From a virus (Duplodnaviria; Heunggongvirae; Uroviricota; Caudoviricetes), in IMG/VR virus record IMGVR_UViG_2541047689_000001: 4,434 bases of DNA; one strand, given 5' to 3'. Numbering within the stretch: the first letter of the stretch is position 1; each line of letters starts with the position of its first letter. Below are positions 1,413-2,156 of the stretch, in pieces. The notes beneath the pieces are model-generated. The model was given only the letters and a program-made list of their open reading frames with translations. It did not search any database and was not told the origin of the DNA. The translations under genes and the position numbers were made by a program.

Positions 1413-2156
1413 ATGACACAGACAGAATCAGCGATTCTGGCGCACGCCCGGCGATGTGCGCCAGCGGAGTCGTGCGGCTTCGTGGTGAGAACGCCGGAGG
1501 GGGAAAGATATTTTCCCGGCGTGAATATTTCCGGTGAGCCGGAGGCGTATTTCCGTATGTCGCCGGAGGACTGGCTGCGGGCAGAGATGCAGGGTGAGAT
1601 TGTGGCGCTGGTCCACAGCCACCCCGGTGGTCTGCCCTGGCTGAGTGAGGCCGACCGGCGGCTGCAGGTGCAGAGTGATTTGCCGTGGTGGCTGGTCTGC
1701 CGGGGTGAGATTCATAAGTTCCGCTGTGTGCCGCATCTTACCGGGCGGCGCTTTGAGCACGGGGTGACGGACTGTTACACGCTGTTCCGGGATGCTTATC
1801 ATCTGGCGGGGATTGAGATGCCGGATTTTCATCGCGGGGATGACTGGTGGCGTCACGGTCAGAATCTCTATCTGGATAATCTGGAGGCCACAGGGCTGTA
1901 TCAGGTGCCGTTGTCAGCGGCGCAGCCGGGCGATGTGCTGCTGTGCTGTTTTGGTTCATCGGTGCCGAATCATGCCGCCATTTACTGCGGCGACGGCGAG
2001 CTGCTGCACCATATTCCTGAACAACTGAGCAAACGAGAGAGGTATACCGACAAATGGCAGCGACGCACACACTCCCTCTGGCGTCACCGGGCATGGCACG
2101 CATCTGCCTTTACGGGGATTTACAACGATTTGGCCGCCGCATCGACCTTCGTGTGA
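1413..2156 (+). CDS. K: Tail assembly protein K (247 aa from ATG 1413), with JAB/MPN metalloprotease and NlpC/P60 cysteine peptidase motifs
   Basis: The frame is open from the TTG at 1371 (the track start) to the TGA at 2154-2156. The first ATG is at 1413, 5 nt after the L stop. A canonical JAMM motif H68-x-H70-x7-S78-x2-D81 (VHSHPGGLPWLSEAD, nt 1614-1655) is seen directly, with an upstream Glu at E20. An NlpC/P60-like Cys (VTDCY, C121) and His (NHAAIY, H187) follow. The start is uncertain: an internal ATG at 1557 (M49) is preceded by GGAGG at 1541-1545. Confidence 0.85.
   Translation: MTQTESAILAHARRCAPAESCGFVVRTPEGERYFPGVNISGEPEAYFRMSPEDWLRAEMQGEIVALVHSHPGGLPWLSEADRRLQVQSDLPWWLVCRGEIHKFRCVPHLTGRRFEHGVTDCYTLFRDAYHLAGIEMPDFHRGDDWWRHGQNLYLDNLEATGLYQVPLSAAQPGDVLLCCFGSSVPNHAAIYCGDGELLHHIPEQLSKRERYTDKWQRRTHSLWRHRAWHASAFTGIYNDLAAASTFV
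1541..1545 (+). promoter_or_regulatory. Internal Shine-Dalgarno-like GGAGG, 11 nt upstream of the in-frame ATG 1557 inside K
   Basis: GGAGG is seen at 1541-1545. It could drive internal initiation of a shorter K form, or it could simply be the Gly-Gly-encoding sequence it lies in. Confidence 0.3.

Follow-up and report, generated by a model that had tools for sequence, protein, structure and literature searches.

The window, a stretch of 4,434 nucleotides, is a lambda-like tail module with the gene order H', M, L, K, I, J'. The synteny H-M-L-K-I-J is intact, with Pfam matches to Phage_min_tail and Phage_tail_L upstream, and the neighbours in phage mEp332 and in lambda agree. The window is 96.7% identical in DNA to mEp332, and its proteins K and I are 97% and 81% identical to those of lambda.

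Genes K and I and the overlap between them

Gene K (tail tip assembly protein K, 1413-2156, + strand) starts with ATG and encodes 247 residues, which the ORF, Pfam, AF2 and Foldseek results together resolve into a JAB/MPN domain, an NlpC/P60 domain and a C-terminal helix. The mechanically called ORF opens further upstream, at TTG 1371. Pfam places Prok-JAB on residues 3-105 (PF14464, E=1.3e-13) and NLPC_P60 on residues 111-224 (PF00877, E=1.7e-12), and the Foldseek matches of the AF2 model (pLDDT 93.2) are JAMM deubiquitinase homologues and NlpC/P60 hydrolases. Our search for a solved K structure found none beyond one distant JAB homologue. K is an enigmatic protein and is not known from virions.

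Gene I (tail tip assembly protein I, 2054-2695, + strand, 213 aa), identified by ORF and Pfam, encodes a 13-residue leader, a ubiquitin-like beta-grasp domain, a Gly-rich/hydrophobic linker and a C-terminal tail-tip plug domain. Residues 14-97 match Lambda_tail_I (PF06805, E=1.4e-24), and the protein matches the lambda gpI PDB chains (8iyk etc.) with E=3e-109. The AF2 model of I is poor overall (pLDDT 49; 61-75 in the ubiquitin-like domain), and only its secondary structure for residues 11-95 was used. In virions cryo-EM resolves only residues 134/135-223 of gpI (PMC10721106, PMC12617516), and virion mass spectrometry lists a single, unidentified gpI peptide (PMC10721106). The presence of the C-terminal part only is compatible with a ubiquitin-like domain that has been removed or is disordered.

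K and I share the segment 2054-2156 on the + strand (103 nt; ORF list and sequence), which comprises K codons 214-247 with the stop and I codons 1-34. I lies in the -1 frame relative to K, with the first codon position of K on coordinates 0 mod 3 and that of I on 2 mod 3. An identical 103-nt overlap is carried by the lambda annotation (K 14276-14875, I 14773-15444), and it is annotated in mEp332 and BP-4795 as well. The ORF coordinates and these three annotations thus bear out the original prediction of a 103-nt out-of-frame overlap. The overlap is confirmed as genuine and, judging from the homologues, as evolutionarily kept, but it is already known and not a discovery, because the lambda annotation has included it from the time of genome sequencing. 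No relevant explicit discussion of it was found in our literature search, and it opens no long-standing question.

By domains, family, synteny and the 103-nt overlap, K and I here form a lambda-type tail-tip assembly gene pair. The pair shares with lambda the gene order, the overlap, the frame relation, both in-frame ATGs described below and a GAGAGG motif. The window is nevertheless not lambda itself, since I has a linker shorter by 10 residues (213 vs 223 aa). The canonical K start of lambda (199 aa) lies downstream of the ATG used here, and lambda too has an open frame of 247 aa. The same K architecture of JAB and NlpC/P60, with an N-terminal beta-grasp domain and Gly-rich linker in I, defines the TAPK/TAPI system (Iyer, Burroughs and Aravind 2006); their subject was the function of the proteins and their gene neighbourhood rather than the nucleotide overlap, and that K processes I is a prediction.

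The tail of K and constraint on both frames

Judged from one sequence alone, the overlap is unremarkable by chance. K-frame stops occur inside I about once per 36 codons and I-frame stops inside K about once per 19 codons, and therefore a 21-codon run-on of K and a 13-codon open leader of I each have a probability of roughly 0.5. We therefore turned to homologues, compiling 134 unique K/I junctions with K identities of 43-100%; loci were found with a 4-sequence K alignment, a 9-sequence alignment being too divergent. In this set the conserved stop position, the start and Shine-Dalgarno (SD) modules and the codon-position pattern of substitution lift the overlap above chance.

The K stop (TGA, 2154-2156, + strand) is positionally almost fixed. 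It ends at 2156 in 94 of the 134 junctions, at 2150 in 38 and at 2159 and 2144 in one each, which places it within two codons in 133/134, although the lambda-type sequences are closely related and these and the following counts are not phylogenetically independent. Upstream of it, AF2 predicts with high confidence an amphipathic alpha-helix at K residues 230-242, ASAFTGIYNDLAA (2100-2138, K frame, + strand; block pLDDT ~92), with a motif [FL]-x-[GA]-I-x-x-[DN]-[LMI] that is kept from E. coli to Gilliamella, Gallibacterium and Photobacterium. The fixed stop, the conserved motif and the predicted helix argue that the tail of K is real, and our check thus points to a conserved, previously uncommented C-terminal helix on this protein. 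On the same DNA, the I frame encodes beta1-turn-beta2 of the ubiquitin-like domain (residues 15-32, 2096-2149, + strand), as placed by the AF2 strands at 15-19 and 29-32, the Pfam boundary and an alignment of distant I proteins. This agrees with the predicted content of the overlap, the C-terminus of K over the ubiquitin-like N-terminus of I. Rhizobium phage P106B has a long K tail as well, which is unrelated.

The original prediction also held that the overlap is under dual coding constraint and proposed comparing its synonymous variation with that of the flanks across homologues. We carried out this comparison as Fitch steps per site on the 134 unique sequences, stratified by clade and codon degeneracy. 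The results show that synonymous change is about halved in the overlap in both frames, as predicted. I-synonymous sites accumulate 8.9 steps/site in 2096-2150 vs 19.6 in the I-only part of the domain (p=1.7e-7), and the 4-fold sites alone give 8.7 vs 20.8 steps (p=1e-5), with the reduction present within every clade at ratios of 0.3-0.5. K-synonymous sites in 2057-2092 accumulate 11.0 vs 16.8 steps/site (p=9e-4); relative to background, change in this segment, which holds 12-13 informative sites only, stands at 0.44 in the clades with an upstream I start and at 0.77-0.88 where the stretch is not I-coding. As read from these alignments, purifying selection on both frames is shown computationally, so that the segment forms a local conservation valley, with the conservation minimum at 2105-2134. 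Translation of both frames across the shared segment is suggested by the conserved start and SD, the stop position and the two peptides.

Homologues in which K and I do not overlap and vary normally at synonymous sites had been named as the counter-case. Homologues with no overlap or one of 1-20 nt do exist (HK97-like, T1-like, Ralstonia and Pseudomonas D14B); the lambda-like long-tail clade, by contrast, shows an unvarying overlap and reduced synonymous variability. In the 58 unique HK97-like and T1-like junctions taken as a baseline, the K stop falls 7-73 nt before the conserved Gly codon of I, with overlaps of 1-20 nt or small gaps.

Initiation of gene I

The annotated I start (the upstream start, U) is the ATG at 2054-2056 on the + strand, whose A is the third base of the K Lys215 codon and whose TG lies within the Trp216 codon; the predicted N-terminal peptide is (M)AATHTLPLASPGMAR. 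Among the lambda, BP-4795, Citrobacter and Providencia/Proteus/Morganella clades, all 103 unique sequences have an ATG at the equivalent position, and 2054 shows 0 Fitch steps; the remaining clades do not use this codon as a start. It is preceded by an SD-like GAGAGG (2037-2042, + strand) formed by K codons E209 (GAG) and R210 (AGG), the latter being the sole AGG codon in K; the spacing to the ATG, 11 nt here within a range of 11-13 nt, is long and counts against this start. The GAGAGG here gives an anti-SD duplex energy of -9.3 kcal/mol, and the 103 upstream-start sequences all fall between -5.9 and -9.3; in clades that start I elsewhere, the same site averages about -3. GAGG is invariant in the 103 sequences, none of which has an I-frame stop between the upstream ATG and Met14.

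Met14 is the second in-frame ATG (2093-2095, + strand; equivalent to lambda 14812), overlapping the K Trp228 codon, and a candidate for the ancestral start position. In the upstream-start clades the region ahead of it carries no SD (-1.5 kcal/mol), and the codon itself drifts between ATG, CTG and TTG, being CTG in sequences of the BP-4795 type, known from published Stx-converting phages, and CTG/TTG in the majority of Providencia-type ones. In BP-4795-type and in the 4/10 Providencia-type sequences with CTG, the upstream ATG is therefore the sole remaining start.

A different arrangement is seen in the more distant Gilliamella-type and mEp013-type clades (n=31), where I starts at the Met14 position with ATG/GTG in 30/31 sequences and a 58-nt overlap. 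Their SD is strong, a GGAGG/GGAGA drawn from the K W223-R224 codons (TGG AGG/AGA CA). The window has TGG CGT CAC at these codons (W223-R224-H225, 2079-2087, + strand), the end of the conserved K core. R224 is invariant as a residue, yet its codon is AGR in 31/31 downstream-start vs CGN in 103/103 upstream-start sequences. In 20/31 of the downstream-start sequences the I frame is interrupted by stops ahead of the Met14-position start.

These data bear on four other readings of the locus. Were Met14 the start in the window too, the true overlap would be 64 nt, the 13-codon leader would go untranslated and the longer annotation would be a partial artefact. The Pfam match begins at residue 14, no structure is predicted for residues 1-14, the N-termini of distant I proteins lie 1-8 residues ahead of beta1, many RefSeq (PGAP) I proteins are the 200-aa form starting there, and the position is demonstrably used as a start by the downstream-start clades. 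We nonetheless consider this reading unlikely, given the lack of an SD ahead of 2093, the invariant upstream ATG and GAGG with no intervening I-frame stop, and a drop in K-synonymous change over the leader that is confined to clades having the upstream ATG. The sequences thus suggest that Met14 is probably not the main start in this clade, and that the 213/223-aa form of I rather than the 200-aa RefSeq form is probably correct for lambda-type phages. A further reading ascribes the low variability of 2060-2135 to a recombination joint, an RNA element or selection on initiation at the 5' end of I rather than to dual coding. Megablast matches to Stx phages do end just past the overlap (at ~2185, ~2250 and ~2382), and I-synonymous suppression is somewhat stronger nearest the start codon (0.39 vs 0.53), where reduced change can partly reflect selection on initiation. 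The suppression is, however, codon-position-specific in four separately analysed clades, both peptides are conserved and no RNA structure is predicted. The I-synonymous sites 2125, 2128 and 2131 show 3, 0 and 0 steps against the mean of 19.6, and the two invariant ones are those at which a change would alter the conserved Asp239 and Leu240 of K, which makes this reading very unlikely.

The remaining two readings concern how ribosomes reach I. The original prediction held that translation of I is linked to that of K and might control their ratio, and we found no support for either part. Termination-reinitiation or unmasking of the ribosome-binding site would make I synthesis depend on K translation. 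The neighbouring junctions are of the classic coupled type (H/M with ATGA at 381-384, M/L with one shared base at 710, L/K 4 nt apart), K/I overlaps in HK97-like and T1-like phages are short, and every ribosome translating K necessarily crosses the I initiation site. Yet the K stop lies 100 nt downstream of the I ATG and 58-64 nt from Met14, with 61 nt in the window itself, distances that exceed the usual back-scanning reach after termination, and I has its own conserved SD. No stable RNA structure masking the I SD or AUG was found in 2000-2130 (MFE -26.3 vs a shuffle mean of -30.9 kcal/mol, z=+1.48); the region is less stable than shuffled sequence, and there is therefore no masked site for K-translating ribosomes to open. 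Ribosome traffic over the site would be expected to hinder initiation, if it had any effect. Dependence of I on K, with control of their ratio, is in our view quite improbable, the more so as the locus has no slippery site. By analogy with lambda G/GT, a programmed -1 frameshift could instead yield a K-I fusion: the I frame is likewise -1 relative to an upstream tail-assembly gene and is open from 2021, fused TAPI-TAPK architectures were occasionally noted by Iyer et al. 2006 (PMC1779556), and the protein database holds K-I fusions (P0003, P0004, P0052). Inspection of the codons found no slippery heptamer X XXY YYZ in the K frame over 2021-2156, and I-frame stops lie directly ahead of the I start in related clades. 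A G/GT-like case would have a downstream frame without initiation signals of its own, whereas I has conserved independent start and SD modules, and frameshifting can hardly be credited here. The database fusions were rejected as frameshift products, as they reflect 2-nt deletions near a GA run in K genes already disrupted upstream.

A maintained arrangement and its possible origin

The explanation that we favour, and hold to be quite probable on the comparative evidence, is a maintained K/I arrangement in which I is made by independent internal initiation and both frames are selected. I would be translated from ATG 2054 inside K, served by GAGAGG 2037-2042, and not by reinitiation or frameshifting. 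The overlap would then exist for two reasons. The K helix extends past the NlpC/P60 core (which ends at about residue 226, nt 2090), and the DNA encoding it also encodes, one base out of phase, beta1-beta2 of I (2093-2156). In the lambda/BP-4795/Providencia superclade, the I start would also lie 13 codons upstream of the ancestral one, so that a short, probably disordered leader is laid over the last beta-strand of the K core (2054-2092). This arrangement may serve compaction and the preservation of two functional peptides, rather than control of a ratio.

The K tail is found in a single clade only, while beta1-beta2 of I is universal. It is the tail that was probably acquired, K being read through into I by overprinting, with gain rather than loss assigned by parsimony on a modest outgroup sample, and the I start may later have shifted upstream together with its SD. 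The complete scenario can be put forward only tentatively, as a possibility: the K helix would have arisen de novo by overprinting of the ancient I beta1-beta2 and have turned into a conserved part of the K structure, after which the I start moved 13 codons upstream and the SD was rebuilt as GAG-AGG (E209-R210), replacing TGG-AGG (W223-R224). It would offer a small and clean case in which a start site and its SD have migrated within an overlapping gene. If it is true, lambda-type phages, in which both ATGs are retained, could produce two isoforms of I.

Short coupled overlaps of the ATGA/TAATG type, such as H/M and M/L here or K/I in HK97-like and T1-like phages, likewise join adjacent late genes on the same strand of one operon. 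They span 1-20 nt with the stop beside the start, whereas here I starts about 100 nt inside K behind an SD of its own, and the peptides of both frames are conserved and structured. Overprinted genes of the phiX174 type likewise have two frames under purifying selection, a suppressed synonymous rate and one younger frame. In contrast to these, the present case concerns only 34 codons, where two genes of a large dsDNA phage meet, and the younger frame has extended a C-terminus rather than created a gene. In recoding, refactoring or mutagenising K or I, 2054-2156 should be treated as dual-coding, as almost any substitution within it will change one protein or the other.

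Gene layout and chance expectation

The genes of the window form a lambda-like tail-tip module. From the ORF calls, the sequence and Pfam matches, their order is the 3' end of H (to 384), M (381-710, Phage_min_tail), L (710-1408, Phage_tail_L), K (1413-2156, 247 aa, with Prok-JAB at residues 3-105 and NlpC/P60 at residues 111-224), I (2054-2695, 213 aa, Lambda_tail_I at residues 14-97) and the beginning of J (from 2757). The closest DNA match is phage mEp332 (96.7%), and lambda is ~95% identical apart from one short divergent piece. K and I share exactly 103 nt (2054-2156), with I in the -1 frame relative to K, confirming the coordinates of the original prediction. 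The overlap is already in the databases: one of the same 103 nt is annotated in mEp332, BP-4795 and the standard lambda record (K 14276-14875, I 14773-15444).

The canonical lambda K start at 14276 (199 aa) falls inside the JAB domain (locus L002, 1614-1759); the frame is open, like that of the window, from an ATG a few bases past the L stop (MTQTESAILAH...), giving 247 aa and a full JAB domain, and the classic start looks too far downstream. In Pseudomonas phage vB_PaeS-D14B two small hypothetical genes separate K and I (L088, 2300-2955), so their adjacency is not obligatory. The I-J spacer (2696-2756) holds a strong hairpin at ~2711-2737, AAACCGCC-TCCG-GGCGGTTT, followed by a U-rich run. It folds at -20.9 kcal/mol (z=-3.19, matched by no shuffle) and looks terminator-like; the terminator consensus scan did not flag it.

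Previous work identified the N-terminal domain of I as ubiquitin-like (Iyer, Burroughs and Aravind) and predicted that the K JAB domain removes it at a conserved C-terminal glycine (PMC1779556). Cryo-EM structures of lambda resolved gpI only for residues 134/135-223, the tail-tip plug, and did not find gpK in virions (PMC10721106, PMC12617516), which points to K as a non-structural enzyme or chaperone and to I as partly structural. The DNA common to both genes codes for the start of the removable or unresolved domain of I and for the end of K.

Inside I, the K frame meets a stop roughly every 36 codons; inside K, the I frame does so roughly every 19. Both a K run-on of 21 codons beyond its conserved core and an open 13-codon leader 5' of the I domain have roughly even odds by chance. 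In a single sequence the overlap is therefore not beyond chance and, with a second in-frame ATG of I at 2093 (Met14), comparison across relatives was required. We parsed junctions by tblastn and ORF logic in 80 close relatives on viral contigs, 80 loci on bacterial contigs (one genome per species, queried with a 4-sequence K alignment), 16 annotated phage loci drawn across the K tblastn ranking, and 131 HK97-like and T1-like loci. The long-overlap set comprises 134 unique sequences with 43-100% K identity, and its junction region aligns without gaps. Near-identical lambda K/I DNA was also present on short contigs of unrelated taxa such as Neobacillus, Pseudoxanthomonas, Shewanella, Bradyrhizobium, Streptomyces and Vibrio (L093-L104, L113-L117, L121-L123, L137, L147, L151); coverage is ~1x where contig names state it, and the pattern resembles contamination of genome assemblies with lambda DNA.

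Two initiation modules for I

The position of the I start decides the length of the overlap, which would still be 64 nt if translation began at Met14. That is where the Pfam domain begins, and RefSeq contains many proteins of the corresponding 200-aa form. In the AlphaFold2 model of I, which is poor overall (pLDDT 49), residues 1-14 are unstructured; the ubiquitin-like part (residues 11-95, pLDDT 61-75) carries beta1 at 15-19 and beta2 at 29-32.

Across relatives, however, two alternative initiation modules co-vary with clade. In the lambda-type, BP-4795-type, Citrobacter and Providencia/Proteus/Morganella clades (103 unique sequences), the codon equivalent to 2054 is invariably ATG, preceded by a Shine-Dalgarno (SD)-like GAGG or GAGAGG 11-13 nt upstream (anti-SD duplex -5.9 to -9.3 kcal/mol), and no I-frame stop lies between this ATG and Met14. 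Met14 itself lacks an SD here (-1.5 kcal/mol), and its codon drifts, being ATG in lambda-type, CTG in BP-4795-type and TTG, CTG or ATG in Providencia-type sequences. The Gilliamella-type and mEp013-type clades (n=31) present the reciprocal arrangement: the upstream position is unusable as a start, with I-frame stops between the two positions in 20 sequences, and the Met14 equivalent is ATG or GTG in 30, lying 7-8 nt past a GGAGG or GGAGA built from the K W223-R224 codons. K R224 is accordingly AGG or AGA in 31/31, against a background usage of 23%, and CGN in 103/103 of the upstream-start sequences. The only AGG codon of the window K is R210, within the SD.

Mainly on this reciprocity, we accept 2054 as the probable functional start in the lineage of the window, hence the full 103 nt. 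By this comparison the longer I form is favoured in lambda-, BP-4795- and Providencia-type phages, and in mEp013- and Gilliamella-type prophages the shorter one. Deposited annotations differ: the Met14 form (P0006, P0032, P0050 and others) is frequent in RefSeq/PGAP, and GenBank lambda and many other records carry the longer one. In Providencia phage PSTCR8lys (L083, 2127-2789), I is annotated from 2346 (148 aa) without K overlap; the ORF with the ubiquitin-like domain opens at ATG 2127, giving a 97-nt overlap, and the deposited start is probably wrong.

Constraint in both frames and the predicted K C-terminal helix

On neighbour-joining trees we tallied Fitch steps per site for each codon phase. 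Both flanks show the normal pattern, with 16.8 steps at K position 3 against 6.2 and 4.2 at positions 1 and 2 in the K-only flank, and 19.6 at I position 3 against 4.9-8.1 elsewhere in the I-only rest of the ubiquitin-like domain (2157-2345). Within 2096-2150, I position 3 (K position 2) falls to 8.9 steps (p=1.7e-7), or 8.7 against 20.8 at 4-fold sites only (p=1e-5), and the ratio is 0.3-0.5 in each of four clades taken separately. K position 3 falls to 6.0 in 2093-2150, where it is I position 1 (p=2e-11), and to 11.0 in 2057-2092 (p=9e-4); the latter reduction depends on clade, the ratio being 0.44 where the segment encodes the I leader and 0.77-0.88 where it lies outside I. In a sliding window the conservation minimum falls at 2105-2134. 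The I-synonymous sites 2125, 2128 and 2131, at which changes would alter K Asn238, Asp239 and Leu240, show 3, 0 and 0 steps. Rough omega estimates are ~0.46 for the K tail (0.25 at K core position 2) and ~0.35 for I beta1-beta2. Synonymous variation is thus reduced in both frames, which supports the dual coding constraint; the overlap is real, conserved and probably dual-coding, as originally described.

The invariant W223-R224-H225 (nt 2079-2087) closes the conserved core of K. In distant K proteins (HK97-like, T1-like, Pseudomonas, Ralstonia, Acinetobacter) only 3-12 residues follow before the stop; lambda-like K proteins carry ~20 additional residues. This extension, found in E. coli, Citrobacter, Providencia, Proteus, Morganella, Gilliamella, Gallibacterium, Photobacterium and mEp013-like prophages of many Enterobacterales, bears a conserved amphipathic motif, [FL]-x-[GA]-I-x-x-[DN]-[LMI]. 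The position of its stop varies by no more than two codons in all but one of the 134 sequences (2156 in 94, 2150 in 38, 2159 and 2144 in one each). The AlphaFold2 model of the window K (50-sequence alignment, mean pLDDT 93.2), whose two domains match JAMM deubiquitinase homologues and NlpC/P60 hydrolases, forms an alpha-helix at residues 230-242 (pLDDT ~92). Together, the motif, the fixed stop and the modelled helix indicate that the K tail, coded by nt 2100-2138, is a real structural element. Site 2122 is the most variable of the overlap (27 steps): A/G is synonymous in I (Leu TTA/TTG) and exchanges Tyr and Cys at K residue 237, which appears to be a tolerated position on the helix.

Translation of I and probable history of the junction

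The proposal that I translation is linked to K found no support. The I start lies 100 nt before the K stop, so termination-reinitiation is implausible, and K/I is unlike the classic coupling junctions of the same window, H/M (ATGA), M/L (one common base) and L/K (4-nt spacer). The predicted fold of RNA 2000-2130 is weaker than that of shuffled controls (z=+1.48), so ribosomes translating K have no masked site to expose. Independent I start modules are conserved. The regulatory interpretation is therefore unsupported, although ribosome traffic across the I start could affect I output. A -1 frameshift like that of lambda G/GT is unlikely, as 2021-2156 contains no slippery heptamer.

The short GA repeat that forms the SD (GAGAGAGG, 2035-2042) lies in or near 2-nt deletions fusing the K frame to I in a few chromosomal prophage copies. 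These deletions explain the K-I fusion proteins P0003, P0004 and P0052; K is already disrupted upstream in the same genes, so prophage decay or errors of assembly are the probable background.

At every one of 58 unique HK97-like and T1-like junctions, the K stop precedes the conserved Gly codon of I by 7-73 nt, and the genes either overlap by 1, 4, 8, 14 or 20 nt or leave a small gap. A similar ancestor would have had its K stop at or just within the I start. In the lambda-like lineage, K may then have run ~20 codons into I, so that the two genes shared 52-64 nt and K gained a new helix at its C-terminus by overprinting. In the lambda/Providencia superclade, a new ATG at K Lys215-Trp216 (AAA TGG) would have taken over initiation, the SD shifting from W223-R224 to E209-R210 and the overlap growing to 97-103 nt. 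Parsimony over the outgroups sampled favours gain of the K tail, but that sample is modest and the long K tail of Rhizobium phage P106B is unrelated. The start/SD switch, the conserved helix and the quantified constraint modestly refine a known feature and do not define a new kind.

Many Stx-converting phages have Megablast matches that end at ~2185, ~2250 and ~2382, which suggests mosaic recombination joints just past the overlap and within I. K is inherited along with the first part of I, and the linker and C-terminal part of I vary: at 96-99% K identity, I identity ranges from 77 to 100%.
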